Source: Alphaproteobacteria bacterium
Lineage (GTDB): Bacteria; Pseudomonadota; Alphaproteobacteria; SP197
Length of the DNA stretch: 64,000 nucleotides
Assembly (NCBI GenBank): GCA_965242595.1
Contig: OZ251464.1
Span: forward strand, 1,188,301 to 1,252,300
Reading direction: 5' to 3'
The translations under genes were made by a program, and so were the position numbers. This document shows, piece after piece, positions 18,520 through 47,684 of this stretch. Position 1 is the first letter of the stretch, and every line of letters starts with the position of its first letter. The notes below the pieces were generated by a model that did no database searches, was not told the DNA's origin, and was given only the letters and a program-made list of their open reading frames with translations.

Positions 18520-18539
18520 TCGTCCCCGCACTGATTGTC

Positions 18540-29685: not shown

Positions 29686-30357
29686 TTGGACGGCATCCAC
29701 GATCTGGGCGGCATGCACGGCTTCGGCCCCATCGCGCGCGAGGCGGACGCGCCCCTGTTTCACGCCGAATGGGAAAGGCGGGCCTTCGGCATCGCCTTGC
29801 AGGCCGCCGACGGCGTCGGCTTCGGCGACGACCATCTGCGCAGCCATATCGAACGCATCCCGCCGCAGACCTATCTGCGGGCCAGCTATTACGAGCTGTG
29901 GCTGCGCGCCGTCGAGGCCATCCTGACCGAACGCGGCATCCTTTCCGCGCCCGAGATCGCCGCGCGCATGGCGGCCCCGAAGGACCCCGGACACAGGGCG
30001 CCGGGCAGCGGCCCCAGCCTGGACGAGGTCGAAGCGGCCGTCGCGGCCGGGGCCAGCACCAGGCGCCCCGGCGCCCATATTGCGGCGCGCTTTCACATCG
30101 GCCAGGCGGTGCGGGTGAAAAACGACCACCCCGCCCATCACACCCGCGTCCCGCGCTATGTCCGCGCCCGGCGGGGCCAGGTGGTGGCCGGTCACGGCGT
30201 CTTCGTCTTCCCCGACAGCAACGCCCAGGACCGGGGCGAGCAGCCCCAGCACTGCTACACGGTGAAGTTCGCCGCCGAAGAGTTGTGGGGGGCGCAGGCG
30301 CGCGCGGGCGACAGCCTCTGCCTGGACCTGTGGGAGTCCTATCTGGAAGCGGCATGA
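29686..30357 (+). CDS. nthB: nitrile hydratase beta subunit
   Basis: MDGIHDLGGMHGFGPI N-terminus characteristic of NHase beta; 223 aa. Confidence 0.9.
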   Translation: MDGIHDLGGMHGFGPIAREADAPLFHAEWERRAFGIALQAADGVGFGDDHLRSHIERIPPQTYLRASYYELWLRAVEAILTERGILSAPEIAARMAAPKDPGHRAPGSGPSLDEVEAAVAAGASTRRPGAHIAARFHIGQAVRVKNDHPAHHTRVPRYVRARRGQVVAGHGVFVFPDSNAQDRGEQPQHCYTVKFAAEELWGAQARAGDSLCLDLWESYLEAA

Positions 30358-31247: not shown

Positions 31248-31373
31248 CGCGGCGGCGCCCTCCGCCCTTGCATTCGCCGGCTGCTTCCTCTCTTATTCGT
31301 CCATTCCAGGGCGGTGCCGAACGCGGGCTTCGGCCCGGCGGCGCCGGGGGGTTCGAACAGGGAGGATGTTGCC

Positions 31374-32462
31374 ATGAAGAGGCGCAAATTTCTCACCGCT
31401 GCCGGTCTGGCGGCAGGCGGGGCGGCCGCTGCCGCCGCATTCCCGAAACCCGCCATTTCCCAGGGGCGCATGAGGCTGACCATGGTCACCTCCTGGGGCC
31501 GCGGCCTGGCCGGTGTGCACGATGCGGCGCAGCGCTGCGCCGACAACATCGTCGCCATGTCGGACGGCATGCTCGATGTCGATCTGAAGGCCGCTGGCGA
31601 GCTGGTGGGCGCCTTCGAATGTTTCGATGCGGTCTCGTCGGGCCAGGCCGACATGTATCACGCCGCCGATTACTATTTCGTCGGCCAGAACCCGGCCTTC
31701 GCCTTCTTCACCTCGCTGCCCTTCGGCATGACGGCGCAGGAACTCAATACCTGGTATTACCACATGGGCGGGCGCGAGCTGCAGGACGAGCTGACCGAGC
31801 TCTTCAATCTGAAGACCTTCGAGGCCGGCAACACCGGTGCCCAGGCCGGCGGCTGGTTCCGCAAGGAAATCCAGGGGCCGGAGGATTTCAACGGCCTCAA
31901 ATTCCGCATGCCGGGCCTGGGCGGCAAGGCGCTGGGCCTGCTGGGCGCTTCGGTGCAGAACCTGCCGGGGGCCGAGGTCTATCAGGCGCTGGCCTCGGGC
32001 GCCATCGACGGCACCGAATGGATCGGCCCCTGGGCCGACGAGAAGGCCGGCTTCTTCGAGATCACCAAGATCTACTACACCTCCGGCTTCCACGAGCCCG
32101 GCCCCGGCCTCTCGCTGGCGGTCAACCGCGAGGTTTTCAACCGCATGTCCGCCTCGCAGCAGAAGATCGTCGAGGCCGCCGCCGCCGAGGCCAATGTCTG
32201 GAATCTGGCGCAGTTCCTCGCCAACAACGGCGCCGCGCTGCAACGGCTGGTCGCCGCCGGCGTCAAAACCATGACCTTCCCCGATTCGGTCTGGGATGCC
32301 TTCGGCCAGGCTGCGCAGCAGGTCTATGACGACAACATGGCCGATCCCATCTTCGCCAGAACCTTCGCCTCCTACCGCGACGCGCTGGCAAAGCTGGCGG
32401 GCTGGGGCGCGCTGTCGGAAGGCGCCTATATGGCCCAGCGCAACCGCGTGCTGGGCATCTGA
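31374..32462 (+). CDS. dctP: TRAP transporter substrate-binding protein (DctP family), TAT signal
   Basis: MKRRKFLTAAGLAAGGAAAAAA twin-arginine signal; DctP-type periplasmic receptor of about 360 aa. SD GGGAGGATG. Confidence 0.8.
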   Translation: MKRRKFLTAAGLAAGGAAAAAAFPKPAISQGRMRLTMVTSWGRGLAGVHDAAQRCADNIVAMSDGMLDVDLKAAGELVGAFECFDAVSSGQADMYHAADYYFVGQNPAFAFFTSLPFGMTAQELNTWYYHMGGRELQDELTELFNLKTFEAGNTGAQAGGWFRKEIQGPEDFNGLKFRMPGLGGKALGLLGASVQNLPGAEVYQALASGAIDGTEWIGPWADEKAGFFEITKIYYTSGFHEPGPGLSLAVNREVFNRMSASQQKIVEAAAAEANVWNLAQFLANNGAALQRLVAAGVKTMTFPDSVWDAFGQAAQQVYDDNMADPIFARTFASYRDALAKLAGWGALSEGAYMAQRNRVLGI

Positions 32463-32537
32463 TCTGCGTGCGGGGGCGCGGGGGCGCGGCGGCGTCCCCG
32501 CCCGCGGCGCCCGCGCGCCATCTCGCGGCCCTGGGCC

Positions 32538-33440
32538 ATGTTCGATCCCGTCCTCTGGCTGGCGCGCCATCTGCTGGGGGGAATCGCCGATCTGGCCACG
32601 CTGCTGGCGCCCGCCTCCTGGCCGGATCCGTCCCGTCCCGAAGGCATCGTGCGCATCGTCCATTACGGCGCCTCGGTCGAGTTGCTGTTCGTCATCGTCG
32701 ATGTCGCGCTGATCCTGCTGGTCGCCGGCCTGTTCTGGCACGCCCTGCTGTGGCGGGTGGTGCGCGTCATCGAGGGCATCGCCAATGTCGTCGGGCGCTG
32801 GGCCGCCTGGGCCGGGCTGGCGATGGTACTGCAGCAGGTGATGATCGTCGCCCTGCAGCGCATCTTCCGCGTCTCCGAGATCACGCTGGGGCCGTTCGGT
32901 CTGGTCTTTACCAAGGATTTGAGCTGGTTCGGCGAGGAGCTGAAGCTCTACAACGCCGCCATCGTCACCCTGTGCGCTGCCTACACCTTCGTCCAGGGCG
33001 GCCATGTGCGGGTCGATCTGTTCTATTCGGCCATGGGCTACCGCGCCCGGCGCCTGGTCGATATGGCCGGTTCGCTGCTGTTCGTGCTGCCGTTCACCGC
33101 CGTCGTCTGGCTGTTCGGCTGGTCCTTCCTGTGGCGCCACCTGGTCACGCCCAAGGTCTCGGCGAGAGATACCCTGGAGACTCTGGAGCGCAAGGCGGCC
33201 GTGCTGCGCTGGAATGTGGAGACCATCGGCTTTTCGCCCAATGGCTTCGATGCCTATTTCCTGTTCAAGGTGCTGCTGCTGGCCTTCGCCGGGCTGATGT
33301 TCCTGCAAGGCCTGGGCTTCTTCTACCGCCGCCTGCTGGAATATCTGGAAGGGCCGGAGGCGGAAGACCGCTTCAGGGATCTGGACGAGGCCCCGGCCAC
33401 CGCCCTGCCGCCCGCCCCGGCATCCACCGATAAGGTTTAG
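32538..33440 (+). CDS. dctQ: TRAP transporter small permease (DctQ family, long form)
   Basis: Multiple transmembrane helices; its position between dctP and dctM. Confidence 0.7.
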   Translation: MFDPVLWLARHLLGGIADLATLLAPASWPDPSRPEGIVRIVHYGASVELLFVIVDVALILLVAGLFWHALLWRVVRVIEGIANVVGRWAAWAGLAMVLQQVMIVALQRIFRVSEITLGPFGLVFTKDLSWFGEELKLYNAAIVTLCAAYTFVQGGHVRVDLFYSAMGYRARRLVDMAGSLLFVLPFTAVVWLFGWSFLWRHLVTPKVSARDTLETLERKAAVLRWNVETIGFSPNGFDAYFLFKVLLLAFAGLMFLQGLGFFYRRLLEYLEGPEAEDRFRDLDEAPATALPPAPASTDKV

Positions 33441-33449
33441 GGGGCGGCG

Positions 33450-35798
33450 ATGGGGCTGGACGGGGTCGAAATCGGCCTTCTGATCGTCTTCGCCTGCCTG
33501 TTCGCCGGCATTCTCTCCGGCTATCCGGTGGCCTTCGCCATCGGTGGCGCGGCGCTGGCCGCCTTCGCCATCCTGGCGCTGCTGGGCGATGCCGGCTGGC
33601 TGGTGCGCGAGACCATCGACGACCGCAGCGACGCCTATCGCGCCCTGGTGGAAAGCGGCGTCAGCGAGCACGCCATCACCCTGTTCCGCTATCCCGATCT
33701 GCCCACCTATGCCGCGCCGCTGTTCGAAGGCGGCGCCGAGGGCGCCTTCTTCCGCACACTCGCCTTCGTCGTCAACCGCATGAACGAGCGGGTGCTGGCC
33801 GGCCAGTCGATCGAAACCCTGCTGGCGGTCGCCATGTTCGTGCTGATGGGGATCGCGCTGGAACGCTCGCGCATCGCGCAGGATCTGCTCACCACCATGG
33901 CGCGGGTGTTCGGCGCTCTGCCGGGCGGGCTGGCGGTGTCGGTGGTGGTGGTGGGCGCCTTTCTAGCGGCATCCACCGGCATCGTCGGCGCCACCGTCGT
34001 CACCATGGGCCTGCTGTCGCTGCCTACCATGCTGCGCCACCGCTATGCGCCGGAGCTCGCCACCGGCATCATCTCCGCCTCCGGCACGCTGGGCCAGATC
34101 GTGCCGCCCTCCATCGTCATCGTGCTGCTGGGCACGCTGGCGGGCGATCTCTACGCCACCGCCCAGGAAAAGCGGGCGCTGGCCGCCGGCTGCCCCGACG
34201 CGCTCACCTATCTGGGCGAGGCGGCGGTGGTCTCGGTCGGCACCCTGTTCAAGGCGGCGATCGTGCCCGGCCTGATGCTGGCTCTGCTCTATGCCGGCTA
34301 TGTCTTCGTCTATGCCCTCATGCGCCCCCACAAGGCGCCGCCGGTCCCGGCCGCTGCCGCAGGCGGGGGCGCCACCGTCGCCCTGCCGGCCAGGCTGCTG
34401 TGGCTGCTGGCCGTTCCGGCCATCGCCGTCGCCCTGGCCGGCGGGCTGTTCACCTTCGGCATGGCCGGGCCGCAGGCGCCCGATATCGCCGCCCTGCAAG
34501 GCCAGCCCCCGGCGCCGCAGCTGCGCACCCATGTCGATGAGCGCTGCCAGGCAGCGATGATCGAACTCCACGGCCAACAGGCGTGGGATCGGTCCGTGGC
34601 GGCGCAGGCGGCGCTTGCCGCCCTGGAAACCGCGCCGCCCGAACCGGAGGAGCTGGCCCGCCTGGAAGCCGAAGCGCTGGCCGCCGTGGCGCCACTGGCC
34701 GAAGGCATGGTGGTGGCGATGCTGTTTCTGGCCCTGGTCCTGGCGGTGGCGCGGGGCGTGGCGCCGGATGCGCCGGTGCTGCCGCTGCTGGCCGGCGGCG
34801 GCGGCATCCTGGCGGTGCTGGCGGCCGATGCCCTCTGGGTCGGCCCTCACACCAGCCCCGGCACGGCGGCGCTGATCTATGCGCCACCCTTCGCCGCCGT
34901 CCTCTACGGGCTGCGCCACGCGCTGAAACGGCTGGCGGCGGTGGAGCTGCTGCGGGTGGTGTTCCCGCCGCTGGTGCTGATCGTGGCGGTGCTGGGTTCC
35001 ATATTGGGCGGCATCACCAATCCCACGCCGGCGGCGGCGCTGGGCGCGGCCGGCGCGCTGATGCTGGCCGCCCATCGCAAGCTGGCAGAGGCCGGCAGGC
35101 GCCAGGGCATGCGCTTCATCCTGATGGCGGCCTTCGCCATCGTCGTCTTTCTGCTGGTGGGCGTGAACTTCGACCTCAGAACCTCCATCGAGGAGGTCGG
35201 TTTCGAAAACTGGACCGCCTTCGCGGTTGCGGCCCTGGCCTATCACCTGGCCTTCGCCGGCTTGGTCTATGCCTGCTGGGTGCTGCTGAGGGGCGGCGTT
35301 CTGACCTCGGTGGTGCGCGATACCGCCAAGGTCACCGCCATGGTGTTCGCCATCCTGATCGGCTCGCAGATGCTGAATCTGGTGGTGATCTCGTTCGGCG
35401 GCGAAACCTATATCCAGGATCTGCTGCGCTCCTTCGACGAGGAATGGATGGTCTTTCTGGTGGTGATGGCGGTGCTGTTCGTGCTGGGCTTCGTGCTCGA
35501 TTTCCTGGAGATCATCTACATCGTCATCCCCATCGTCGGCCCGGTGATCTATGGCGGCGCGCTGGATCCCAAATGGGTCACGATCATGATCGCGGTCAAT
35601 CTGCAAACCTCGTTCCTCACCCCGCCCTTCGGTTTCGCCCTGTTCTATCTGCGCGGCGTGGCGCCTCCCGGCATCACCACCGGCCAGATCTACCGCGGCG
35701 TCGTGCCCTTCGTCGTCATCCAGATGGTGGGGCTGGCCCTGATGTGGCTGGCCCCGGAGATCGTGACCTTTCTGCCAGACCTGCTGCCGGAAAACTGA
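33450..35798 (+). CDS. dctM: TRAP transporter large permease (DctM family) with a long Ala/Pro-rich inserted loop
   Basis: 782 aa, many transmembrane helices with DctM-like N- and C-terminal halves, and a roughly 200-aa low-complexity insertion in the middle. Confidence 0.8.
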   Translation: MGLDGVEIGLLIVFACLFAGILSGYPVAFAIGGAALAAFAILALLGDAGWLVRETIDDRSDAYRALVESGVSEHAITLFRYPDLPTYAAPLFEGGAEGAFFRTLAFVVNRMNERVLAGQSIETLLAVAMFVLMGIALERSRIAQDLLTTMARVFGALPGGLAVSVVVVGAFLAASTGIVGATVVTMGLLSLPTMLRHRYAPELATGIISASGTLGQIVPPSIVIVLLGTLAGDLYATAQEKRALAAGCPDALTYLGEAAVVSVGTLFKAAIVPGLMLALLYAGYVFVYALMRPHKAPPVPAAAAGGGATVALPARLLWLLAVPAIAVALAGGLFTFGMAGPQAPDIAALQGQPPAPQLRTHVDERCQAAMIELHGQQAWDRSVAAQAALAALETAPPEPEELARLEAEALAAVAPLAEGMVVAMLFLALVLAVARGVAPDAPVLPLLAGGGGILAVLAADALWVGPHTSPGTAALIYAPPFAAVLYGLRHALKRLAAVELLRVVFPPLVLIVAVLGSILGGITNPTPAAALGAAGALMLAAHRKLAEAGRRQGMRFILMAAFAIVVFLLVGVNFDLRTSIEEVGFENWTAFAVAALAYHLAFAGLVYACWVLLRGGVLTSVVRDTAKVTAMVFAILIGSQMLNLVVISFGGETYIQDLLRSFDEEWMVFLVVMAVLFVLGFVLDFLEIIYIVIPIVGPVIYGGALDPKWVTIMIAVNLQTSFLTPPFGFALFYLRGVAPPGITTGQIYRGVVPFVVIQMVGLALMWLAPEIVTFLPDLLPEN

Positions 35799-36525
35799 CC
35801 CGCCCCAGCTCGCGCCAACCGCCGGCCTCCAGCGCCTCCAGAGGGCGAAAACGGACCTTGTAGTCCATCTTCGGCGAGCCTTCGATCCAATAGCCCAGAT
35901 AGACATGGCCCAGGCCCAGGGCGCGCGCCCTGGCCACATGCCACAGGATCAGCCAGGTGCCCAGGCTGCGGCGCGCCAGCCCCGGTTCGTAGAAGGTATA
36001 GACGGCGGAAAACCCGTCGCTCAGCCGGTCGGTCAGCGCGGCGGCGACCAGCCGGCCGCTGCCGTCGCGGGCCTCCACCAGCCAGGTGGCCACCGGCGTT
36101 TCTTCCACCATGGCGCGGAAATCGGCGAACGACATCGCCGCCATGGCGCTGCCCGCATGATGCGCCCGCTGATAGCGCGCGAACAGCGCATAGTGTTCGG
36201 GCGTGGCCACCGCCGCCGCAGCGCGGACCTCCAGATCGCCGTTGCGCCGCCAGCTGCGCCGCTGCGAGCGCGACGGGCGGAACCTGGCCACCGGGATGCG
36301 CACGGGAACGCAGGCCCGGCAGCCCGCGCAGACCGGGCGATAGGCAAAGCCATGGCTGCGGCGAAACCCGGCCCCTACCAGCCGGTCGTGAAGGGCGCCG
36401 GCATCCGCCAGCCCCAGCTCGGTGACAACCTTGCTCTCCGCCCGCCCCGGCAGATAGGAGCACGGCTCTTCGCGGGTGCCGAAGAAGAAGACAGGCCCGC
36501 CGCCACTCTCATGTACCCTCGCCAC
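35716..36525 (-). CDS. bpt: arginyl/leucyl-tRNA-protein transferase (Bpt/Ate1 family)
   Basis: Bpt signatures CSYLPGR, GFRRSHGF and CxxCRxC (CAGCRAC), plus a GNAT-like C-terminal half. Start is GTG at 36525 or TTG at 36531. The 3' end overlaps the convergent dctM by 83 bp. Confidence 0.75.
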   Translation of the reverse strand: MARVHESGGGPVFFFGTREEPCSYLPGRAESKVVTELGLADAGALHDRLVGAGFRRSHGFAYRPVCAGCRACVPVRIPVARFRPSRSQRRSWRRNGDLEVRAAAAVATPEHYALFARYQRAHHAGSAMAAMSFADFRAMVEETPVATWLVEARDGSGRLVAAALTDRLSDGFSAVYTFYEPGLARRSLGTWLILWHVARARALGLGHVYLGYWIEGSPKMDYKVRFRPLEALEAGGWRELGRVSFPAAGLAERSRSPGPATSGPAPPSG

Positions 36526-36541
36526 GGCCAATCTATAACCA

Positions 36542-36552
36542 CCCCCCCCCCC
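36542..36552. repeat. C11 homopolymer (G11 on the bpt coding strand) about 12 nt upstream of the bpt start, at the island junction
   Basis: accCCCCCCCCCCCtcatcc read directly. Confidence 0.9.
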
Positions 36553-36633
36553 TCATCCACCATGCGCTTTGGCGCCTTCCGGGTGTGAATGACAACGGAA
36601 CGAGACACAAACATAGGGTGTAGGAGGGATGAA

Positions 36634-39600
36634 TCATGAGAGGTCAGGCTGCGGCGCCGTCGTCTCGCCATCCGACATCTCTTCGTCTGCCCCAGCCTCA
36701 ACGGCCTTGCGAGACTTTCGATCCTCTTCAAGAAGTCGCTCGAGTTGGTCGTGGATCCTTTTGGCAGTAGCATCGGGGTTCCGAAACCAGTCGGTCGACC
36801 AGACCCGAAGAATCGTCCAGCCAAGCTCCTCCAGCACAGCTTGGCGGAGCTTGTCGCGATCACGTGCCGTCGCTGAGGAATGATACCGAGCTCCATCGCA
36901 CTCAATGCCCGCAAGATAGTTCCCAGCAGCGTCAGGATGGATGACTCCAAGATCCACGCGAAAACCGGATACCCCGATCTGGGTGCGGATTTCCCATCCC
37001 TTTGCGCGAAACGCCTCAGCCACCGCTTCCTCGAAAGGGCTCTCCGCGGGACCGAGGGAACCTTCATCACGAGAAAACAGTGCGATGGCCCCTCGCTCTG
37101 CGTAGTCAAGAAAGCTCTTGAGGTGTTTTACCCCGTCGGCCCGTGTGCGTCCGAGATCGACCTGTTCAGCCTGGATCGAAGAAAAGACATGAAGCTCGCG
37201 GCGTGCTCGGGTGATAGCGACATTGAGGCGTCTCTCCCCTCCTGTATCGTTGATTGGGCCGAAGTTCATCGTAAGTTTACCGGCACGATCAGGTCCAAAG
37301 GTGATTGAGAATAATATCACATCGCGCTCATCTCCTTGGATGTTTTCGAGATTTTTCACAATGACTGGTTCCTCGCGCTCATCTGAAAAAAACCATTCCA
37401 GGCGAGGATCTTTTCGACAAATCTGGTCGAGAAAATCCTGGACCAGAGACTGCTGTTGAATATTGAAGGTAATGACACCAAGGCTATGGCGATCACTTTC
37501 AGGGACCGCAAGCCAATCCGTGAGGCGCTGCCTCACTACTTCAGATATTGCCTTCGCCTCCTTCTCATTCACGCGAGCCTGCCCCCGCGCGTACACTCCG
37601 TCGACTTTGTGGAATTTGACCGCTTTGGAACCGGTAGAAGGTGCCGGGAAAGTAACAAGCCTGTCATTGTAGTAAAAGTGGTTGGAGAAGGCGATGAGAG
37701 CCTCGTCGCGACTCCGGTAGTGCCATTCGAGGCGTCGCTGGCGAACTCCTGCGGTCAAGACTTCTTCCAGGATTGATGGTAAGTCGCGTTCAAACTCCAG
37801 AAAATCTTCATCTTCGTCATCGGCACGTCCAAAGAAATACGTCGGTGGAAGTTGCATAGGATCACCTACAACGATTGTCTGACGAGCTCGTGCAATGGCG
37901 CCGATTGCATCCCAGGTCGTGATTTGAGAGGCCTCGTCAAAAATGACAAGGTCGAAGGTCGTGTGATCTGCTGGGAGATACTGGGCTACAGACAGAGGAG
38001 ACATCAACACACACGGCGCAAGTTTTCCGAATGTCTTTGGAAGATTTGTCAGAAGTTGACGAATCGGCATGGAGGGGCGTTTGAGTCCAAGTTGGTGTCG
38101 GAGAATTCCGGGTTCAGATCTCCTTGTCACAACGTCTTTCGCCGGGAGCCCGTGGTCAATACGTCGCATCACCTCAGCAGGCGCAAGCTCCGCCGCGATA
38201 CCATCGAGTTTGCGGAAGTTCTCAACAACGTTTCTATGCTTCCAATGGATGAAGCGTCGAAGCTCGTCGCTTGCATCCATTGCAAGAGGTAGCCACCAAG
38301 CTGCATAAGACTGTTCGAATGCCTCTTCCGCCGACCCTTCGATTAACCCAGACTCAAGTGCCTCAAGTAGTGGACCTAGCCCACGTTGTTTCGCACGATT
38401 GGATTTTTCTACCCACTGGGCCCAGTCAACAAGGTGTGCGCGCTCGGTCACAATGGTAGACAGAGCTACCTCAATCTCCGTAACGCTCAATCCATTAGGA
38501 ATCACACCACCCTTTTGTGCAAAAGCATGAATTCCTTCACGGATTTCTTCTTCTGCAGAGAGATACGCTTTGAGAACATCGAGAAGAGCCCCGGGGGAAG
38601 CTGAACCAAGGGTGTCCATAGCCGACTCAAAGCGAATCGAATTTTCTGCTTCTGAACGTAGATTGGATACAGCTTTCCGAAATGTGATAGCCTGTCGCAC
38701 GACTTCCGTCGATTGTGTCACATCCGTTCCATCAAGAGTTTTAGCAACCTGTTCAATGGGGTTTTCGTGGATAGCACGATCTCGCTCCTGCACCACGAAA
38801 AGTGCTTTCAAGTCCACGCTAGGATCGGCTAAACCGCTGTCAGCGTAGGTTTGTAGAAGTTTCCGAACCTTCTTCTGTGCAAAAATGGAAATGGGCCAGA
38901 ATTTCGCCTGAGCTTCGCGCCAACTTACGTCCAACTGCTCAAGAGCCATTCTTCGCACCGTATCAAGCGAATAGGTAGCCATTGTGCTGGACACCGCGGT
39001 GTCGCGTTCTCTAACATCTTTCGAAAATGCTTCAGCCAGCAGTGAGAGTTGCTCGGCAGGCAAATTGGGCACAGATGAGAAATCGAGTGCAGAGCTTTCT
39101 GTACGGGATGCGAGAGCCATGAGGCGTGTGCGACGCCCGCTCTCAAGGTTCGGATTTGAACAAAGGCCGAGCCCGCGGGCGAGTGCGTGTTCCGCCTGCC
39201 TCAAACGGGTAAGTGTCGCGCGGAGGGTCTCCACAACCTCAAGGAGTTCAGTTTCCCACTTGTGGGACCAATGCTCGCCGCGAACAAAAGAAAGGGCAGG
39301 TCTGTCCTTGACTACGTCATGCGTCTGCGCAAGTTCGACGGCAAGTGACACCAAGTTTCGGTAACTCTCCACATCATGTGCGTCCTTGGAGGTGAAAGAG
39401 AGTTCGAAGAGTGCCTTGCCGCGAGCGATACGAGTCACTGCTTCAAAGACGCTGAACCCTTGAGTTCCCTTGGCGTGGAGAGCCTGAACATAGGCATTCA
39501 AACGATCTCGTGACAGCTTCAAATCTTCAGTGACTCGGATCCACTTCTTTTCGTCTGTATCGGGGGAACGATCCCATCCGCGACCGAGTTGTGCAAGAAC

Positions 39601-41892
39601 CGATTTACGGTCGGTTTTGTTTGAGTGAAGTTCGAGTACTGCATCACCAAGGCCGGTTTTTGCCAAGCGGCGATGCACAACATCGAGCGCCGCCGCTTTC
39701 TCGGCAACGAAAAGCACAGTCATACCCTCACCCAGGCACTGGGCAATGATATTGGTGATGGTCTGGCTCTTTCCGGTTCCCGGCGGTCCGATGAGGACGA
39801 AGTCACGGCCCTCCGAAGCTGCAACGACTGCGGCAAGCTGTGAACTGTCCACCGACAACGGGGTAAGGAGGTCCCGTGGGGTGCGACGTTGATCAATCTC
39901 TTCTGGGGCGATATCGATGCCCGATTCAGATCTTTCGTGTGAGTATTCAGTCTCGCCGATAAGATATTTCACCAAACGATTCTTGCGAAGCTCCCTTTCG
40001 CGATCAACAAGATCTTTCCACATCAAATATTTTGCAAAAGAAAACGTCGAAAGTGCCAATTCCTCAACCACTTCGAAGCCTGTGATGTTGCGCACCTTGC
40101 GACGTATAGTGTCGAAAACAAGCGGAAGATCAATGCCACTCTCGTCGCGTGGTAACTCACCCTCAAGTTCCGGGATTCGAAGATCAAAGTCTCGCTTCAG
40201 GAACTCCAATAGAGTGAGATTAAATCGGACGTCGTCTTCGTGGTGCGCGATTCGAAAGGGAGATTGGGCGGAACGGCGTTCGAGTTTGGTTGGCACCAGG
40301 ATTAAAGGCGCATGATAAAGGCGCGTATCGCCTTCCGTCCTCTTCCAGCGCAGGAATCCTGCAGCGAGGAAGAGTGTGTTCGTGCCACCTTCCTGCATGT
40401 CGCTCTTTGCGCGGCGGTAGAGGGTTAGCAGGCGGCTATTCATCTCTTTGCTAGTGAGTGGAACGACGAGTTGACGACACTCGAAGGCATCACGAATTAC
40501 ATCTTCCTCTATTCGTTGCGCTTCTTGAGGGGAGACGGTACGGTTGCCAATAGGATCCTCGTCGTTGAGCGAAAGTGTGCGGAACTTCTTTCCGGCAGCG
40601 AGAGCGTCTTCGAGAGTGCCAACATCGGGGCAGCGCAGAGGCAGGGTCTGCTTACTTTCACGGTAGTTGAGAAGTCGATTACGAAGCGAGAGGTCAAGAA
40701 GCTTGCGCTGCCAGCGTTTGATTCGATCCTGGGGCGTGTCTGGTTCCTCTTCTCCAATCTCGCTCGGAAGAAGGCCGAAATCGGGTAATGGTGGAAGGGC
40801 GGCGGGTTTCACGTCGTCCGATGAGCTGGAATCGGGCGAATCCGGTGCTCTGTGGCTCGCGAGCGGGCGAATCCGCGCCGAACGGGAGCGCGAGATATCA
40901 ACTGCGATCACGAACTCCGGGTCGCGGTCCTCCGAGAAACGACGTCGGCCCTCGTCGACTGCTTGATCAAAACGAATCGAAGGTCGGCTGGTCAAGAGGG
41001 TAGTTTCGATTGGCACGAACTCCCGGGCTTGCACAGCCTTGCGGATGGCGACCACATCGGGCTCCGTCACATGGCCGAAATCTCGTTTGCAAACCCAGAC
41101 GCCGACCCAGGCATGACCTTGAGAGAACAGGACGACCGAATTGAGACCGGCAGCCTCGAAGGCTGCGGCAAGGAAAAGGGAAGAATCGAGGCAAGTCGCA
41201 AGACCCTCCCTTGTCATCCGGCCAGGGCTCCGAATTTTTTGACCCTCCCGTTCGAACGAGGTGGGTGGTTCGGCATATGTGAGTCCCAAGCCAGTGGTGG
41301 CCGACCAGATGGCGGCGGCAAGAAGATATGCACGCCTTGGGTCTCCAGACTGATAGCCGTTCATTGAACCGTCCCGGCCCGCGGCTTCCAGAATCCGCGC
41401 CGCGTCTTTCACCACATCTGCAATAGCCGAATCGTTCGGAGAGACGAACGCCGCAAGAATCTGGGCCATGTCGCCCACTCCACCCCACTCGTCGCGCGCA
41501 AGAAGGTCGATCTGGCACTTCTCCTTGAGTGTTGGAATGTCCTTTGCCTCTAAGCTGAACTCGAGTTCTCCAACCTCCGCTTCGTCGAGGCCTGCCAAGT
41601 GTTCGATATCGAGGGACGTGGTCATGTCGCGGACCGCGAACTCCTCCCCACTCCCGATCCGATCGACGTTCCATATCTTCTCTCGGATGACGGGCGGTGC
41701 GGAACGGAGCGTGATCCGCACATCCGTGAGGGCCTCAGCAGTAAGGTTGTTAATCGCGAGCCGCTCGATGATCGTGACGCCGTTCTGGGCGGAGGCAAAG
41801 TTGACCCTCCGCAAAACTTGATGCTGGAGAGATACGACGCCGGATTCCTTCTGCCCGCCGTGAACATCGATGTTGTTGTTATCGTTTGACAA
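36634..41892 (-). CDS. giant multidomain protein: TGc-like domain, DUF4011-like region, Upf1-like SF1B helicase, C-terminal Vsr/DUF559-like endonuclease; candidate defense helicase-nuclease
   Basis: Upf1-like SF1B helicase motifs: Walker A VLIGPPGTGKSQTI; FDLVIFDEASQIT (motif II); TIVVGDPMQLPP (III); YRSRDEALIAFSNHFYY (IV); QGDERDVILFS; NVAITRARREL (VI). DUF4011-like LLDLSLRNRLLNY upstream of the helicase. C-terminal GFRVDLGV...YLAGIECDGARYHSS..RDRDKLRQAVLEELGWTILRVWSTDW is DUF559/Vsr-like (REase_MTES_1575-type). N-terminal GLATCLDSSLFLAAAFEAAGL ... GHAWVGVWV ... PIETT looks like a transglutaminase-core Cys/His/acid triad. GC is about 50% against about 68% in the flanks. The listed ORF begins at a TTG at 41985; a better start is the TTG at 41890-41892, 8 nt after GGAGGAG (41901-41907), exactly where GC drops. 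Confidence 0.85.
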   Translation of the reverse strand: MSNDNNNIDVHGGQKESGVVSLQHQVLRRVNFASAQNGVTIIERLAINNLTAEALTDVRITLRSAPPVIREKIWNVDRIGSGEEFAVRDMTTSLDIEHLAGLDEAEVGELEFSLEAKDIPTLKEKCQIDLLARDEWGGVGDMAQILAAFVSPNDSAIADVVKDAARILEAAGRDGSMNGYQSGDPRRAYLLAAAIWSATTGLGLTYAEPPTSFEREGQKIRSPGRMTREGLATCLDSSLFLAAAFEAAGLNSVVLFSQGHAWVGVWVCKRDFGHVTEPDVVAIRKAVQAREFVPIETTLLTSRPSIRFDQAVDEGRRRFSEDRDPEFVIAVDISRSRSARIRPLASHRAPDSPDSSSSDDVKPAALPPLPDFGLLPSEIGEEEPDTPQDRIKRWQRKLLDLSLRNRLLNYRESKQTLPLRCPDVGTLEDALAAGKKFRTLSLNDEDPIGNRTVSPQEAQRIEEDVIRDAFECRQLVVPLTSKEMNSRLLTLYRRAKSDMQEGGTNTLFLAAGFLRWKRTEGDTRLYHAPLILVPTKLERRSAQSPFRIAHHEDDVRFNLTLLEFLKRDFDLRIPELEGELPRDESGIDLPLVFDTIRRKVRNITGFEVVEELALSTFSFAKYLMWKDLVDRERELRKNRLVKYLIGETEYSHERSESGIDIAPEEIDQRRTPRDLLTPLSVDSSQLAAVVAASEGRDFVLIGPPGTGKSQTITNIIAQCLGEGMTVLFVAEKAAALDVVHRRLAKTGLGDAVLELHSNKTDRKSVLAQLGRGWDRSPDTDEKKWIRVTEDLKLSRDRLNAYVQALHAKGTQGFSVFEAVTRIARGKALFELSFTSKDAHDVESYRNLVSLAVELAQTHDVVKDRPALSFVRGEHWSHKWETELLEVVETLRATLTRLRQAEHALARGLGLCSNPNLESGRRTRLMALASRTESSALDFSSVPNLPAEQLSLLAEAFSKDVRERDTAVSSTMATYSLDTVRRMALEQLDVSWREAQAKFWPISIFAQKKVRKLLQTYADSGLADPSVDLKALFVVQERDRAIHENPIEQVAKTLDGTDVTQSTEVVRQAITFRKAVSNLRSEAENSIRFESAMDTLGSASPGALLDVLKAYLSAEEEIREGIHAFAQKGGVIPNGLSVTEIEVALSTIVTERAHLVDWAQWVEKSNRAKQRGLGPLLEALESGLIEGSAEEAFEQSYAAWWLPLAMDASDELRRFIHWKHRNVVENFRKLDGIAAELAPAEVMRRIDHGLPAKDVVTRRSEPGILRHQLGLKRPSMPIRQLLTNLPKTFGKLAPCVLMSPLSVAQYLPADHTTFDLVIFDEASQITTWDAIGAIARARQTIVVGDPMQLPPTYFFGRADDEDEDFLEFERDLPSILEEVLTAGVRQRRLEWHYRSRDEALIAFSNHFYYNDRLVTFPAPSTGSKAVKFHKVDGVYARGQARVNEKEAKAISEVVRQRLTDWLAVPESDRHSLGVITFNIQQQSLVQDFLDQICRKDPRLEWFFSDEREEPVIVKNLENIQGDERDVILFSITFGPDRAGKLTMNFGPINDTGGERRLNVAITRARRELHVFSSIQAEQVDLGRTRADGVKHLKSFLDYAERGAIALFSRDEGSLGPAESPFEEAVAEAFRAKGWEIRTQIGVSGFRVDLGVIHPDAAGNYLAGIECDGARYHSSATARDRDKLRQAVLEELGWTILRVWSTDWFRNPDATAKRIHDQLERLLEEDRKSRKAVEAGADEEMSDGETTAPQPDLS

Positions 41893-41964
41893 TTTCTTCT
41901 CTCCTCCAGGCTTCCCCTTCGGGGGATCCCGGCTGCTCGACACCCCGAATGCGCCCCGCGAATC

Positions 41965-41992
41965 TTCTAAGGCCGAACGCAGCAATTTTCAA
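41965..41992 (-). promoter_or_regulatory. candidate sigma70-like promoter for the island gene (TTGAAA-N16-TTAGAA)
   Basis: On the minus strand: TTGAAA (complement of 41987-41992), a 16-nt spacer, then TTAGAA (complement of 41965-41970). It lies about 75 nt upstream of the proposed TTG start, and a small CCCCC-GAA-GGGG hairpin sits in the leader. Motif-by-eye only. Confidence 0.25.
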
Positions 41993-42317
41993 GTCAGCCC
42001 TGGAGAGCGATCTGGGCGGTCAGTCGGGCCGATGCCGGCTATCCACAGCACATGGGAGGAGGTCTCCAAGGGCAAGCATCACCGCCCCTCTATGAATTCG
42101 GTGAAACCGCGACGCTCGACGGAGGGCTGGTGGTGATCGGCTCCAGAAAGGTGGATGCTGGGTTGGTGGCTCATGCGGGTGCTTTGCAGGCAGGCGGCAG
42201 GCTGGTCCTGATTTGTCCCGCCGCCCGTCACGAGCTTCCCCGCGCCCACCTACCGCGCCGTTGCCGCCCCGTCCGGCCTCTGCTATCGCTCGTCCCGGCA
42301 GCGGCAGCGGGGGCGCC

Positions 42318-43142
42318 ATGTTCGCAAGGACGCTGGCAGGCTTGAGGGCGGCGGGCGAAGAGAAGGTCGTCGCCCACGGCAAGGCGCGGGTGGTGCGCCT
42401 GGTGACGCGCCGCGACGGCATGGGCTTTTCCATGTCGGATGTGCGCGTCGCTGCCGGCGTGGTGAGCGAGCTTTGGTATAAACACCATTGGGAAGCCAAC
42501 TACATCGTCGCCGGCACCCTGGGCGTGGAGGAGGTGAACGGCGGGCGTTCCTGGACCCTGGGGCCGGGCGGCCTCTATTGCGTCGGGCCTCGCGACCGCC
42601 ACCGCCTGCGCGCGGTGAGCGATGTGCAGGCCGTCAGCATCTTCAATCCGCCGCTGACCGGCGACGAAAACCACGACAACGACGGCGCCTATCCGCCCGG
42701 CGGCGATGTTCCGGAGGGCCAGCCAGCGATGTTCGTGCGCACGCTTGCCGAGCTGCGCGCCGCCGGGCGGGAGATGACGGTGGCCGATGGCAGCGCCCGC
42801 AGCCTGCGCATGGCGCTGAAGGCCGACGGGCTGGGTTTCTCGGTCAGCGATGTCCGGCTGGCGGCCGGCAGCCGCAACAGGCTTTGGTATAAGAACCATT
42901 GGGAGGCCAACTATGTCCTGGCGGGCAAGGGCGCCGTCACCGCCCTGGCAACGGGCCAGGAATGGGCCCTGGCGCCCGGCATGCTCTATTGCGTCGGCCC
43001 CAGCGACCGCCACGCCATGCACGCCCACAGCGATCTGCACCTGGTCTCCATCTTCTGCCCGGCGCTGATGGGCCACGAACAGCACGACGCCGAAGGCAGC
43101 CTGGCCGCCAGCGGCCCCGTGCCGCCCGGCCCTTCCGCCTGA
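42318..43142 (+). CDS. tandem double-cupin protein with two ectoine synthase (EctC)-like domains
   Basis: Two consecutive copies of about 137 aa, each with the EctC-like WYKHHWEANY(I/V)(V/L)AG and L(Y)CVGP(R/S)DRH motifs. No ectA or ectB nearby. The ORF begins at 42213, but MFARTL (42318) matches the start of the second copy (MFVRTL). Confidence 0.7.
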   Translation: MFARTLAGLRAAGEEKVVAHGKARVVRLVTRRDGMGFSMSDVRVAAGVVSELWYKHHWEANYIVAGTLGVEEVNGGRSWTLGPGGLYCVGPRDRHRLRAVSDVQAVSIFNPPLTGDENHDNDGAYPPGGDVPEGQPAMFVRTLAELRAAGREMTVADGSARSLRMALKADGLGFSVSDVRLAAGSRNRLWYKNHWEANYVLAGKGAVTALATGQEWALAPGMLYCVGPSDRHAMHAHSDLHLVSIFCPALMGHEQHDAEGSLAASGPVPPGPSA

Positions 43143-43152
43143 CCGGCGGGCG

Positions 43153-43725
43153 TCAGTTGGGCCGCCCGCTGTCGTCGGCGGCGGTGGAAAGCAGGGCCGG
43201 GTCGATGCCGATCCGGGTCAGCGCCTTGTGCCATTTGCCGCCCAGGTCGCGGTCGAACAGCAGTTCGGGGTCGGCCTCGCAGGTCAGCCAGCCATTGGCC
43301 TGGAGTTCCGCATCCAGCTGGCCGGGCGCCCAGCCGGCATAGCCCAGGGCCAGGATGCTGCTCTGCGGTCCGCTGCCCGCCGCCATGGCGCGCAGCACCT
43401 CGACGGTGGCGGTCAGCGCGATGCCGCCGGCGATGCGCAGGCTGCCATCGTTCATATAGTCGTCGGAATGCAGCACAAAGCCGCGCCCGGTCTCCACCGG
43501 CCCGCCGAAATGCAGCCGGATGGTGCCGCCGCCGCGCTCTTCGATCCCCATCTGCTCCAGCAGGTCGGCGAAGGAAAGCTCGTCCAGCGGCTTGTTCACC
43601 ACCAGGCCCATGGCGCCCTCCGTGCTGTGGGCGCAAACATAGATCACGCTGCGCTCGAAACGGGGATCGCCCATGGTCGGCATGGCGACCAGGAAACGGC
43701 CTTCCAGATAGCGGTCGTCGGCCAT
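43153..43725 (-). CDS. yqgE: YqgE/AlgH family protein (UPF0301)
   Basis: LEGRFLVAMPTMGDPRFERSVIYVCAHSTEGAMGLVVNKP is the conserved YqgE N-terminus. Confidence 0.85.
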   Translation of the reverse strand: MADDRYLEGRFLVAMPTMGDPRFERSVIYVCAHSTEGAMGLVVNKPLDELSFADLLEQMGIEERGGGTIRLHFGGPVETGRGFVLHSDDYMNDGSLRIAGGIALTATVEVLRAMAAGSGPQSSILALGYAGWAPGQLDAELQANGWLTCEADPELLFDRDLGGKWHKALTRIGIDPALLSTAADDSGRPN

Positions 43726-43880
43726 GGCGTCGGCTCCCCCGTCGTTCGTGGCCCATGGTCGGGATAATCGCTGCCACTGGCAAGGGCGGGCGCCGCCTCT
43801 GGCGCGGCCTGGCGCTCGCCACGCGGCTTGAGCACGGCGGGAAAGCGGGCCATACCGGGCCAGACATCCGGGAGGAAACC

Positions 43881-44363
43881 ATGACCATTCAGGTTGGCGA
43901 CAGCATGCCCAAGGGCACCTTGCACCGCATGGGCGAAGGCGGGCCGAAGGCCATCGCCACCGACGAGCTCTTCGCGGGCAAAAAGGTGGTGCTGTTCTCG
44001 GTGCCGGGCGCCTTCACGCCCACCTGTTCCCAGCGCCATCTGCCGGGCTTCGTCCACCATGCCGATGCCCTGAAGGCCAAAGGCATCGACACCATCGCCT
44101 GCATGGCCGTGAACGATGCCTTCGTGATGGGCGCCTGGGGCGAGGATCAGAATGTCGGCGACAAGGTGCTGATGCTGGCCGACGGCTCGGCCAGCTATGC
44201 CAGGGCGCTGGGGCTGGAGCTGGACCTGACCGCCGTCGCCTTCGGTGTGCGCGGCAAGCGGTTTTCGCTGCTGGTGGAGGATGGCGTGGTCCGCAGCGTC
44301 AACATCGACGAGGAGGGCCTGGCGAGCAGCAGCGCCGAGGCCATGCTGGAACAGCTGGGCTGA
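43881..44363 (+). CDS. peroxiredoxin (Prx5-like, AhpC/TSA family)
   Basis: GAFTPTCS peroxidatic cysteine motif; 160 aa; SD GGAGGAAACC. Confidence 0.85.
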   Translation: MTIQVGDSMPKGTLHRMGEGGPKAIATDELFAGKKVVLFSVPGAFTPTCSQRHLPGFVHHADALKAKGIDTIACMAVNDAFVMGAWGEDQNVGDKVLMLADGSASYARALGLELDLTAVAFGVRGKRFSLLVEDGVVRSVNIDEEGLASSSAEAMLEQLG

Positions 44364-44386
44364 AGCGGCGGGGGCCTTCAGCGGGG
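44361..44386. terminator. candidate bidirectional hairpin between convergent prx and rnhA
   Basis: GCTGAAG-cggcggggg-CCTTCAGC inverted repeat (7-bp stem) spanning both stop codons; no clear U-tract. Confidence 0.2.
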
Positions 44387-44836
44387 CAGAAAGGGCGCCA
44401 TTCCCCGCCGGGCCAGGGCGTCGGCGCGTTCGTTGCCGGGATCGCCGCTATGGCCCTTCACCCACCGCCAGTCGATGCGATGGGGCGCGGCCGCCTCGGC
44501 CAGCCGCCGCCACAGATCGGCGTTCTTGACCGGCGCGCGGGCCGATGTGCGCCAGCCATTGGCCTGCCAGCGGGGCAGCCAGGCGGTGATGCCCTGGCGC
44601 AGATAGGTGCTGTCGGTGTGCAGCACCACGGCGCTGGCGCGCTTCAGCGCCCCCAGGGCGCGGATGGCCGCCTCCAGCTCCATGCGGTTGTTGGTGGTCT
44701 CTGCCATGCCGCCGCAGAGCTCCCGCTCCCGTTCGTGCCACAGCAGCAGCGCGCCCCAGCCGCCGGGGCCGGGATTGCCGGCGCAGGCGCCGTCGGTATA
44801 GACGACGATGGGCCGGTCGCCGCCGGTCCTAGCCAT
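44378..44836 (-). CDS. rnhA: ribonuclease HI
   Basis: [20 protein letters not shown]...[13 protein letters not shown]...HTDSTYL...[15 protein letters not shown]; start at MARTGG, with alternative upstream ATGs. Confidence 0.85.
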
Positions 44837-45797
44837 CCGCCAGGCCATAGGCGGCGGCGCTGGCCACGCCCCGGTGGAAACGCAGCCGGGCGAGATAGGC
44901 CCGGGGATCTTTGGGCTGCACCAGGGCGCCATCCACCGGGTGGAGGCGGTCGTAAAGGCGGGTCAGCAGAAAGCGCAGCGCCGCGCCGCGGGCCAGCAGC
45001 GGCAGGGCCTGGAGCTCGCCCGCCTCGAACGGGCGCACCCGGCGATAGGCATGGAGCAGCGCCCGCGCCTTGGTGACGTTGAACTCGCGGGCGTGCTCGA
45101 AGCACCAGGCGTTGAGGCAGATCGCCACGTCGTAGGCGAACAGGTCGTTGCAGGCGAAGTAGAAATCGATCAGCCCGGTCAGCGCGCCGCCCTCGAAAAA
45201 GGCGTTGTCGCGAAACAGGTCGGCATGGATGACGCCGGCGGGCAAATCCCGGGGCCAGCCCGCCTCCATGGCCGCGATCTCGCCCGCGATCTCGCCCGCC
45301 AGGCCCGCCTCGATGCGGTCGGCATCGCGGCCGCAGCGCTCCGCCAGGCGCCGCCAACCTGCCAGGGAAAGGTCGTTCGCCCGTCCGATGGCGAAATCCG
45401 CCCCTTTCAGATGCATGTCGGCCAGGGCGCGCCCGACACCGGCGCAATGCTCCACCCGCGCGCGCGAGGGCGAGACGCCCTTCAGAAAGCTGACCAGGGC
45501 GGCCGGGCGCCCGTTCAGCTGCTTCAGCGCGATGCCGTTGCGGTCGCCGATGGGGGTGGGGCAGGGCACGCCGCGCGCCGCCAGATGCTCCATCAGCCCC
45601 AGGAAAAAGGGCAGGTCGCAGGCGGCGACACGCTTCTCGTAAAGGGTAAGGATGAAGGGGCCGGCCTCCGTCATCACGAAATAGTTGCTGTTCTCGATGC
45701 CTTCGGCGATGCCTTTCAGCGACAGCAGGGCGCCCAGGTCGTAATCGGCCAGGAAGGCGGCCAGTTCCTCGGCGGCAACCTCGGTATAGACGGCCAT
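44829..45797 (-). CDS. thrB: homoserine kinase, type II (APH-fold)
   Basis: Aminoglycoside-phosphotransferase-like kinase: IENSNYFV..., [11 protein letters not shown], and Brenner motif ...IDFYFAC.D. Typical alphaproteobacterial ThrB next to ispH. Confidence 0.75.
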
Positions 45798-45798
45798 G

Positions 45799-46785
45799 TC
45801 AGCCGGCCAGGGCGCGGGGCAGCTTGAAGCGCACATCCTCGTGGCGCAGCACCACCTCTTCCACCTCCAGCGCGCGGCGCCGGGCCAGGGCGGCCATGGT
45901 CTCTTCCACCAGCGCCTCCGGGGCCGAGGCCCCGGCCGTGATGCCCAGCGTGGCGACCCCGTCCAGGGCCAGGGCGCCCAGCTCCCCCGCCCGCGCGATC
46001 AGCGCCGCGCGCGTGGCCCCGGCGGCGCGCGCCACCTCCACCAGCCGCAGCGAATTGGAGGAATTGGCGGCGCCGATCACCAGCAGCAGATCGCAGCGGG
46101 GCGCGATCGCCTTCACCGCCTGTTGGCGGTTGGTGGTGGCGTAGCAGATGTCCTGGCGATGCGGCCCGCGAATGGCGGGAAAGCGGCGCCGCAGGCAGGC
46201 GACGATGGCGGCGGTGTCGTCCAGCGAAAGGGTGGTCTGGGTGATATAGGCCAGCTTTTCGCCGTCGCCGGGCGCGAAGGCTTCGGCCTCTTGCACGGAT
46301 TGCACCAGGGCGATGGCGCCTTCGGGCAGCTGGCCCATGGTGCCCACCACTTCGGGATGGCCGGCATGGCCGATCAGCACGATCTCCCGCCCGGCCGCAT
46401 GGTGTTTTTCCGCCTCGCGGTGGACCTTGGAGACCAGCGGGCAGGTGGCGTCCAGCTGGAACAGGCCGCGCCTTGCCGCCGCCGCCGGCACCGCCTTGGG
46501 CACGCCATGGGCGGAAAAGATCACCGGGCGGTCGTCGTCCGGCACATCGTCCAGCTCTTCGACGAACACCGCGCCTTTCGCCTCCAGGGCCGCGACCACG
46601 AAGCGGTTGTGGACGATCTCGTGGCGCACATAAACCGGCGCGCCATAGCGTTGCAGCGCCTTCTCCACGATCTGCACGGCGCGATCGACGCCGGCGCAAA
46701 AGCCCCTGGGGCTGGCCAGCAGCACCTTCAGCGGCGCCAGCCCTTCGCCCCTCTCTTCCGCCTCGCCGCGCTTGCCATGGTTCAT
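45799..46785 (-). CDS. ispH: 4-hydroxy-3-methylbut-2-enyl diphosphate reductase
   Basis: [15 protein letters not shown]...HEIVHN...ATCPLV..; three Cys ligands; 328 aa. Confidence 0.9.
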
Positions 46786-46869
46786 GTCGTCTCTTGCCCG
46801 CCGCCGCCGCCGCCCCTATGGTGGCGGCGTTTCCATAGCCGTTCCCGTCGCGCCATGGAAGGAGGAGGG

Positions 46870-47112
46870 ATGAGCGAAGGCGTCGTCGTCGCCCGCAAGA
46901 GCCCCTATAAGGTGGCGCTGAAACAGGGCAAGAAGTATTTCTGGTGCAGCTGCGGTCGCAGCGCCAGCCAGCCGTTCTGCGACGGTTCCCACAAGGGCAG
47001 CGGCCTGCTGCCCGCCATCTTCACGGCCGAGAAGGACGAGGACGCCTGGCTGTGCGGATGCAAGCACACCGAAGGCAGGCCGTTCTGCGACGGCAGCCAC
47101 AACAGCCTGTGA
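46870..47112 (+). CDS. CDGSH iron-sulfur domain protein (two CDGSH motifs)
   Basis: CSCGRSASQPFCDGSH and CGCKHTEGRPFCDGSH; SD GGAGGAGGG. Confidence 0.8.
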   Translation: MSEGVVVARKSPYKVALKQGKKYFWCSCGRSASQPFCDGSHKGSGLLPAIFTAEKDEDAWLCGCKHTEGRPFCDGSHNSL

Positions 47113-47684
47113 TCGCTGCGCTCTGCGCCCGTCCGGCGGCGGCGCTGCGCCGCGTGGCGGGCGGCCTGCGGCGCCGGGCGCTGCTGGGGGCGCTGCTGGC
47201 GCTGGCCGGCTGCGGCGGCGAGGATGGCGCCTATGTGCTGACCTGCCCCCAGGCGCTGATCGTCGCCGACGCCGCGCGCCTGACCCTCTATGCCCCGGGC
47301 GCGGGGCGCGACCTGCTGGATATGCGCTTCGACGCCTCCATCGCCGCCCTGGACTGGACCTGCGAGTTCTTCCCCGGCGAGAACCGGGTCGATGTCGAGC
47401 TGCGAACGGCGCTGCGGGCGCTGCGCGGGCCTGCGGCCGAGGCGCCGTCGGTCAGCCTGCCGGTCTTCGTCGCCGTCGCGGATCCGCAGGGCCAGCTGCT
47501 GGCCAGGCGCGTCTTTCAGCTGGAGATCGGCTTTCCCGGCGCCGAGGTCGAGGTTGGCCACATCTGGCCCACGCGCCAGAGCCTGCCGCTGGGCCCGGGC
47601 CGGGCGGCGGCGGACTACACCCTTTATGTCGGCTATCGGCTGACCCGCGACCAGCTGGCCGAAGCGCGCGCCGCCGCCCCGTAG
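47109..47684 (+). CDS. predicted lipoprotein, hypothetical
   Basis: Lipobox LLALAGCGG following a basic n-region; the GTG start overlaps the CDGSH stop. Confidence 0.45.
   Translation: MIAALCARPAAALRRVAGGLRRRALLGALLALAGCGGEDGAYVLTCPQALIVADAARLTLYAPGAGRDLLDMRFDASIAALDWTCEFFPGENRVDVELRTALRALRGPAAEAPSVSLPVFVAVADPQGQLLARRVFQLEIGFPGAEVEVGHIWPTRQSLPLGPGRAAADYTLYVGYRLTRDQLAEARAAAP

Follow-up and report, generated by a model that had tools for sequence, protein, structure and literature searches.

What is the low-GC segment that interrupts an otherwise GC-rich alphaproteobacterial chromosome between bpt, which encodes an arginyl/leucyl-tRNA protein transferase, and an ectC-like gene, and how did it come to lie there? 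The segment belongs to a 64 000-nucleotide (nt) stretch of contig OZ251464.1 (assembly GCA_965242595.1, positions 1 188 301–1 252 300), hereafter the window, in whose coordinates positions are given unless another contig is named. We consider it quite likely that the segment is a horizontally acquired single defense gene, encoding a short form of the giant protein ProA, which displaced a PsyrTA system at a variable site bounded by the ectC-like gene and bpt, has since been kept by selection, and may act as a helicase–nuclease.

The only long open reading frame (ORF) with coding-like frame statistics in the segment is proA, on the minus strand (36634..41892, stop codon at 36634–36636), with a product of 1752 amino acids (aa). 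A mechanical reading of 1783 codons places the start at 41985, too far upstream. We place it at TTG 41892, because the closest homolog, P0002, is collinear from the same residue (it opens MSNDNSNID where the window reads (TTG)SNDNNNID) and because a ribosome-binding site, GGAGGAG (41901..41907, minus strand), lies 8 nt ahead. The public gene call P0001 (1611 aa) begins at an internal ATG, 141 conserved residues late given the TTG start, and thereby drops most of the N-terminal β-sandwich described below (41470–41892).

On the NCBIfam equivalog NF058533, “anti-phage protein ProA”, the protein reaches 1971 bits, above the curated cutoff of 1500 (residues 62–1767 of the 1783-codon reading, aligned to model positions 1–1722 of 1903). 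In PADLOC, the single-gene candidate PDC-S37 fits best (1146 bits; residues 419–1765 against model positions 7–1354 of 1550). Hhe, a system reportedly going back to Gao et al. in 2020, fits less well: the NCBIfam model Hhe_antiphage gives 818 bits against a cutoff of 2000, and the PADLOC Hhe model comes second-best with 552 bits. Among the candidates scored, 2249 are homologs at E ≤ 1e-10, the closest (P0002) being 77% identical and collinear over residues 1–1752. These assignments indicate that the gene is a member of an already catalogued and named family of giant anti-phage helicase–nucleases, which bears out the suspicion of defense cargo first raised from the DNA letters.

The drop in GC over ∼5.4 kb is real. 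The whole window has a GC content of 69.7%, and in 500-nt windows values fall to 0.49–0.60 at ∼36 500–42 000, compared with 0.66–0.75 on both sides. Eleven successive 1-kb windows of the island (0.508–0.622) lie ∼2.5 to 5.6 standard deviations below the mean outside it (0.711, standard deviation 0.036). A dinucleotide signature agrees: the island has a strand-symmetric distance δ* of 181 (×1000) from the remainder of the window, as against 21–84 for 5-kb windows that do not overlap it. At third codon positions, GC is 0.40–0.60 in the proA ORF vs 0.85–0.89 in bpt and the ectC-like gene; CTG supplies 11% of leucine codons vs 74%, CTT 37% vs 7%, and AAA 49% of lysine codons vs 23%. The shift therefore lies in synonymous choice, beyond amino-acid content. 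The codon change was originally attributed to AAA, GAA and TTA-type codons, which is correct for AAA, to which CTG and CTT must be added, but not for GAA, whose share is the same (48% vs 47%), nor for TTA, which is rare (8 codons).

Such figures leave it extremely unlikely that proA is a native gene of merely odd composition, shaped for example by the amino-acid constraints of a giant protein, with no transfer involved. Third-position GC is down by 30–45 points and the CTG share has collapsed, neither of which depends on amino-acid content; a homolog on another contig (L057) sits at its host's GC; and the gene is missing from a sister-strain contig (L064, below), with Nitrospira proteins among its closest relatives. 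The one circumstance in favor of a native gene is a low-GC patch at 13.5–16 kb that consists of native cytochrome oxidase genes, a sign that composition alone can mislead. The foreign composition and the absence from L064 together agree with the original prediction of a horizontally acquired gene without adjoining mobility genes.

The history of the site emerges from related contigs. Within the species-level collection, the genome that comes nearest is an alphaproteobacterial metagenome-assembled genome (MAG; OZ241369.1, here L001). It encodes a Bpt 78% identical to that of the window, and its DNA is 85–87% identical over window positions 30004–36504 and 42254–47676. Between the same flanks it holds a Pfam-confirmed putA of 1077 aa at native GC, a gene found nowhere in the 64-kb window. 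Sister-strain contigs from other samples were recovered by exact-match look-up of the neighboring AlgH protein. Two of them, L063 and L065, carry proA and match the window at 93% identity over the junction. In L064, the flanks share 95.3% identity with the window and 98.4% with the proA-bearing L063; proA is missing there, and its place is taken by two genes at native GC (0.67–0.71) that match the PADLOC models of PsyrA (413 bits) and of the PsyrT C-terminus (140 bits). The arrangement recurs in L106, with psyrTA next to the ectC-like gene, and in the more distant relative L105 psyrTA is also in the neighborhood; the ectC-like gene is absent there between psyrA and algH. PsyrTA, reportedly a RecQ-PRTase toxin with a DprA-like antitoxin described by Millman et al. 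in 2022, belongs to a protein family unrelated to ProA and occupies the same chromosomal slot in the sister strain, as the displaced predecessor of ProA.

A piece of that predecessor survives in the window. Directly beyond the foreign DNA, tblastn detects a psyrA remnant of 225 nt on the plus strand (42004..42228), corresponding to aa 96–174 of intact PsyrA (E 7.6e-21, 65% identity) and 80% identical at the nucleotide level to L064. The segment had been described as one large minus-strand ORF and nothing else; proA is indeed the sole long coding-like ORF, but this fragment was overlooked. L063 and L065, which bear proA, retain this remnant too, and the proA/remnant junction is thus common to three independent assemblies. 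The 5′ end of psyrA and psyrT were displaced, the 3′ two-thirds of psyrA (∼1 kb) were deleted too, and no psyrT remnant was found in the window. Because the window keeps a psyrA fragment, these comparisons indicate that the event is a replacement of PsyrTA by proA and not a simple insertion.

A simple insertion, in which a one-gene island entered between a formerly adjacent bpt and ectC-like gene as first proposed, would account for one intact gene between the flanks and for the sharp composition drop at both ends. We regard it as very improbable, given that a psyrA fragment separates proA from the ectC-like gene and that bpt and the ectC-like gene are adjacent in no relative recovered. No empty site turned up among these relatives; the slot is filled by putA in L001 and by psyrTA in L064 and L106. 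A metagenome scan with Bpt returned only distant relatives (≤ 68% identity), none with ProA, PsyrTA, putA or ectC beside bpt, and exact look-ups of P0001 and Bpt returned no records.

An assembly or binning chimera of two organisms would fit a source that is evidently metagenome-derived and a homopolymer at one junction. Its probability is close to nil in our assessment, since the right junction and the psyrA remnant recur in L063 and L065, independent assemblies from other samples, and the ORF is unbroken and shows purifying selection. With replacement of PsyrTA as the favored reading, the site behaves as a defense hotspot in a small sample: ProA in the window, L063 and L065, and PsyrTA in L064 and L106, between flanks that are 95–98% identical. 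It resembles core-gene-flanked hotspots such as cDHS1 of Pseudomonas aeruginosa (PMC10250203) in its fixed housekeeping flanks, differing defense systems and lack of dedicated mobility genes; unlike those, it has so far yielded only ProA, PsyrTA and, in another species, putA, on a handful of contigs. The gene upstream of bpt changes with distance, being putA in L001 (6378–9611) and a CitMHS/TrkA_C transporter gene in the more distant L044 (8051–9901) and L002 (54–929). Content upstream of bpt thus varies among relatives, and the junction has therefore been rearranged more than once.

The limits of the foreign DNA follow from GC, third-position GC, the dinucleotide signature and breaks in homology. 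It spans ∼5.45 kb (36553..42003) and comprises proA with ∼80 nt downstream and ∼110 nt upstream (41893–42003); on the left, homology to L001 ends at ∼36504–36555, and on the right the psyrA remnant starts at 42004. The ends had been placed at an 11-nt homopolymer and at the ribosome-binding site of the gene, which is only roughly right, as the right end lies at 42003, ∼110 nt past the gene, and the homopolymer seems native. This C11 run (36542..36552; G11 on the bpt strand) abuts the foreign DNA on its left side, within the 5′ leader of bpt and 10–20 nt before the start of that gene, and aligns to GGCGGGGGCGG, an interrupted run upstream of bpt in L001; it thus appears to belong to the native DNA. 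The tract may be of variable length, influence the translation of bpt, or be a hotspot of assembly error.

As originally noted, marks of mobility are missing. No integrase was found with proA, whose flanks are syntenic housekeeping DNA, no tRNA lies in the 64-kb window, and a search for terminal direct or inverted repeats and target-site duplications listed only short, low-identity matches, none convincing. The recombinase, tRNA or att site and flanking direct repeats of a classical integrative genomic island are therefore wanting at the proA locus. In a promoter and terminator scan, matches were no more numerous than in shuffled sequence. There is no terminator between proA and bpt, and bpt may be read through from proA.

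Selection appears to have kept the gene. Over 1431 codons shared with the L063 allele (5206–9498 of that contig), proA shows a synonymous divergence (dS) of 0.22, a nonsynonymous divergence (dN) of 0.043 and a dN/dS of 0.20, with no stop codon in the L063 allele; six flanking genes in the same comparison give a dS of 0.10 and a dN/dS of 0.17. The low ratio and the absence of a stop codon indicate that proA is maintained by purifying selection. The flanks of L063 are nearer to the ProA-less L064 (98.4%) than to the window, so presence or absence of the gene does not track flank phylogeny, and the proA alleles are older than the divergence of the flanks. On the simplest reading, two alleles of the locus, psyrTA and proA-with-remnant, segregate within the population and are exchanged through the conserved flanks by homologous recombination. 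When substitutions were polarized by two outgroups as a test of amelioration, GC-to-AT changes were in excess (80 vs 18 and 45 vs 28), but with outgroups that are GC-richer, parsimony is biased in that direction, which confounds the test.

The wider family supplies hints as to how such a gene travels. The closest non-self homolog (77% identical in aa and 76% in nt, gene GC 0.64) lies on the metagenomic contig L056. There (3010–18960) ProA is encoded ∼5 kb from a large serine recombinase, with helix-turn-helix genes, an M78 peptidase and DUF4411 pair and a PIN gene nearby. This island suggests that the ProA family can ride on integrative elements. In L057 and L059, proA stands alone between housekeeping genes, at host GC in L057 and 12–14 points below its flanks in L059; in L058 the gene is 12–16 points below. 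In L058 (5080–8001), a short-form ProA gene comes directly after two SLFN_AlbA_2 + HATPase_c_4 genes, with a one-base overlap between the upstream gene and the ProA start; the group may form a small composite defense island.

Near-full-length homologs also occur in 71 plasmid records, including those of Thioclava, Paracoccus, Rhizobium and Mesorhizobium, and a Paracoccus yeei plasmid carries its homolog as a solo gene; phage genomes have essentially none. Proteins annotated from Nitrospira MAGs belong to one homolog cluster (representative 71% identical), and the family therefore crosses phyla. No non-coding DNA is shared with other ProA loci except that of the sister strain, and the databases yielded no immediate donor. 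We propose that proA entered a site that differs between strains and is flanked by the ectC-like gene and bpt, where it displaced the resident PsyrTA and left 225 nt of psyrA. Transfer probably took the form of recombination at this site, which was variable already, and not of a self-mobile element; plasmids are a plausible vehicle.

The copy in the window shares with NF058533 and PDC-S37 the N-terminal domain, DUF4011, a split superfamily 1B (SF1B) helicase, an MTES_1575 nuclease and single-gene occurrence. It differs from NF058533 in its C-terminus, as the last ∼180 model positions, which hold DUF3320, a double winged helix-turn-helix (wHTH), are absent and the protein stops within the linker that follows the nuclease, just short of where DUF3320 would begin. 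No match to DUF3320 was found in the protein, nor any DUF3320-like sequence anywhere in the window. The module is part of the NF058533 model and of most members, yet stands outside the NCBIfam membership rule. Among the 120 best homologs, about 22 are likewise shorter than 1800 aa, mostly 1720–1775 aa, and have no DUF3320 Pfam match, which amounts to about one-sixth of close homologs.

In a neighbor-joining tree, short forms appear at at least eight separate places, and the window protein groups with the short forms P0010 and P0014, sister to long forms. No decayed DUF3320 was found downstream of the gene at three short-form loci. Because short forms are scattered in the tree without downstream remnants, repeated loss of DUF3320 is indicated, and the absence here is, on this evidence, no local truncation but an instance of a module shed repeatedly in the family. 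The same pattern indicates that DUF3320 is already absent from the lineage that donated this gene.

Across the remainder of the protein, the domains of a helicase–nuclease are recognizable. DUF4011 (aa 397–565; 40198..40704, this and all following domains on the minus strand) is found by Pfam PF13195 at 158 bits. It is followed by an Upf1-like SF1B helicase core (aa 682–1571; 37180..39849), located by motifs and by a split AAA_11/AAA_12 Pfam match. Motifs I, Ia, II, III, V and VI are all intact, among them GPPGTGKS (702–709, Walker A), DEASQ (1319–1323), GDPMQLPP (1343–1350), QGDERD (1519–1524) and NVAITRAR (1557–1564), and the RecA-pair fold is nearest to Upf1, Sen1 and Dna2. Motifs I and II are ∼610 residues apart, a gap largely filled by a confident all-helical insertion of ∼470 aa in a second structural model (aa ∼779–1245; 38158–39558). 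By sequence and fold, the nearest solved relatives of the motor are IGHMBP2, Sen1/SETX, Upf1, Dna2 and ZNFX1, all SF1B motors of 5′–3′ polarity. Such eukaryotic Upf1-like helicases (Sen1/SETX, Upf1, IGHMBP2, Dna2, ZNFX1) are the best matches to the motor, but ProA differs from them in its helical insertion and in the fused Vsr-like nuclease and transglutaminase-like domain. The C-terminal endonuclease is of the Vsr/DUF559-like PD-(D/E)xK type (MTES_1575 restriction endonuclease; aa 1620–1717; 36742..37035), with a Pfam MTES_1575 match above the gathering threshold, a Vsr-like fold and conserved acidic residues (D1647, E1664-x-D1666).

The N-terminal 400 residues give no Pfam match even at E ≤ 10. 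An AlphaFold2 model of this region, built from a 56-sequence alignment (mean predicted local distance difference test score, pLDDT, 82), has a β-sandwich at residues 20–130 (41503..41835, pLDDT ∼90) followed by an α/β domain at residues 139–340 (40873..41478). In the latter, Cys234 is modeled at a helix N-terminus, with His260 opening the strand pair that follows, and Cys234, Asp236 and His260 are invariant across 56 family members. The model thus points to a probable papain/transglutaminase arrangement, in agreement with the assignment made for related giants (Anantharaman et al. 2013, PMC3710099).

In these related giants, which combine HEPN, transglutaminase, SF1 helicase, Vsr and wHTH domains, modification-independent restriction has been proposed (Anantharaman et al. 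2013, PMC3710099). Hhe and the MTES_1575-type giants of that study share with ProA the DUF4011, the Upf1-like SF1 helicase, the Vsr-family restriction endonuclease, a probable transglutaminase-like domain and a single-gene, presumably modification-independent design; the window protein differs in having a modeled β-sandwich in place of an all-helical HEPN at its N-terminus and in having no wHTH/DUF3320. Its own organization is that of a single gene, with no methyltransferase or partner gene, in a slot that other strains fill with a defense system. Judging from the domains, the Upf1-like SF1B motor would load on invading nucleic acid and translocate 5′-to-3′, and the C-terminal Vsr/DUF559-like endonuclease would cut DNA without modification-based self-marking. 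The β-sandwich and the transglutaminase-like Cys-His domain could serve as a sensor, as a regulator or gate, or as a second, proteolytic effector. Because the short form has neither HEPN nor wHTH/DUF3320, recognition must on this scheme lie elsewhere in the protein, with DUF4011, the helical insertion and the N-terminal module as the candidates. We give the helicase-driven DNA-cleavage core of this mechanism about an even chance, and any specific role of the transglutaminase-like domain far less.

A bolder version holds that the recurrent short ProA, without DUF3320 and HEPN, is a functionally distinct lineage of single-protein immunity in which the invariant N-terminal sandwich and Cys-His domain, in place of DNA-binding wHTH domains, recognize the invader, for example by sensing or cleaving a phage protein, and so trigger the helicase–nuclease. 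We think this unlikely. If true, it would make short ProA a protease- or sensor-gated nuclease and not a restriction-like enzyme.

The protein might also be no immune effector at all but act in genome maintenance or in interference with plasmids or conjugation, or be an addictive selfish element, its label over-extended to a form without DUF3320. We give this only a slim chance. The “anti-phage” description rests on database labels, a DUF4011 gene of P. aeruginosa is a conserved core gene that flanks a defense hotspot and does not lie inside it (PMC10250203), and the copy studied here is without the wHTH module proposed to recognize invading DNA. Against this stand the score above a curated equivalog cutoff, the occupation of the exact slot of another defense system, a patchy distribution of genes that are often low in GC and plasmid-borne, and the recurrence of short forms at separate points of the tree without a degraded DUF3320 behind them, a sign that these forms are functional.

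Several points weigh against our account of an immune gene that replaced PsyrTA. A full-text search of one literature library returned no primary paper or experiment on ProA, and two candidate preprints contain no mention of it, so the “anti-phage” label rests on NCBIfam and PADLOC naming. That the P. aeruginosa DUF4011 gene is core (PMC10250203) means that relatives need not be mobile defense cargo. The transglutaminase assignment draws on fold prediction and a pair of invariant residues in a region where Pfam is blank, and the RecA1 half of the helicase is poorly modeled. The left junction of the PsyrTA strain was not recovered, as L064 and L106 both end inside psyrT, and the loss may have comprised psyrT alone or also other genes such as putA. 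Finally, proA has twice the synonymous divergence of its flanks, and the history of its alleles is thus not simply vertical.

The locus offers a clean natural case of one defense system swapped for another at a fixed slot without mobility genes, with the remnant still visible and both states segregating at 95–98% identity. Repeated loss of DUF3320/wHTH, together with purifying selection on the short form, constrains ideas on which domain recognizes the invader. The current understanding of defense islands is unchanged; the value lies in a well-resolved case of turnover and in a candidate for the function of the transglutaminase-like domain.

Elsewhere in the window, a second and milder GC dip (13500–16000, 0.59–0.63) was considered as another island and rejected, as it consists of native genes for cytochrome c oxidase II and I and a UbiA-family prenyltransferase. 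A plus-strand ORF of 2130 aa (49595–55987; GC 0.74–0.75), with no Pfam match and with long overlapping ORFs on the opposite strand, may encode a giant protein or be a spurious high-GC ORF. The native left flank of proA, bpt (35716..36525, minus strand; Pfam ATE_N and ATE_C; 87.5% nt identity to L001), starts at GTG 36525 or TTG 36531. The native right flank is the ectC-like gene (42318..43142, plus strand), which matches Pfam Ectoine_synth in two stretches and is called at 274 aa in the sister contigs. Its product has two tandem ectoine-synthase/cupin domains, and within the gene a 47-nt sequence is repeated, its two copies (42470 and 42881) sharing 83% identity at a spacing of 411 nt.

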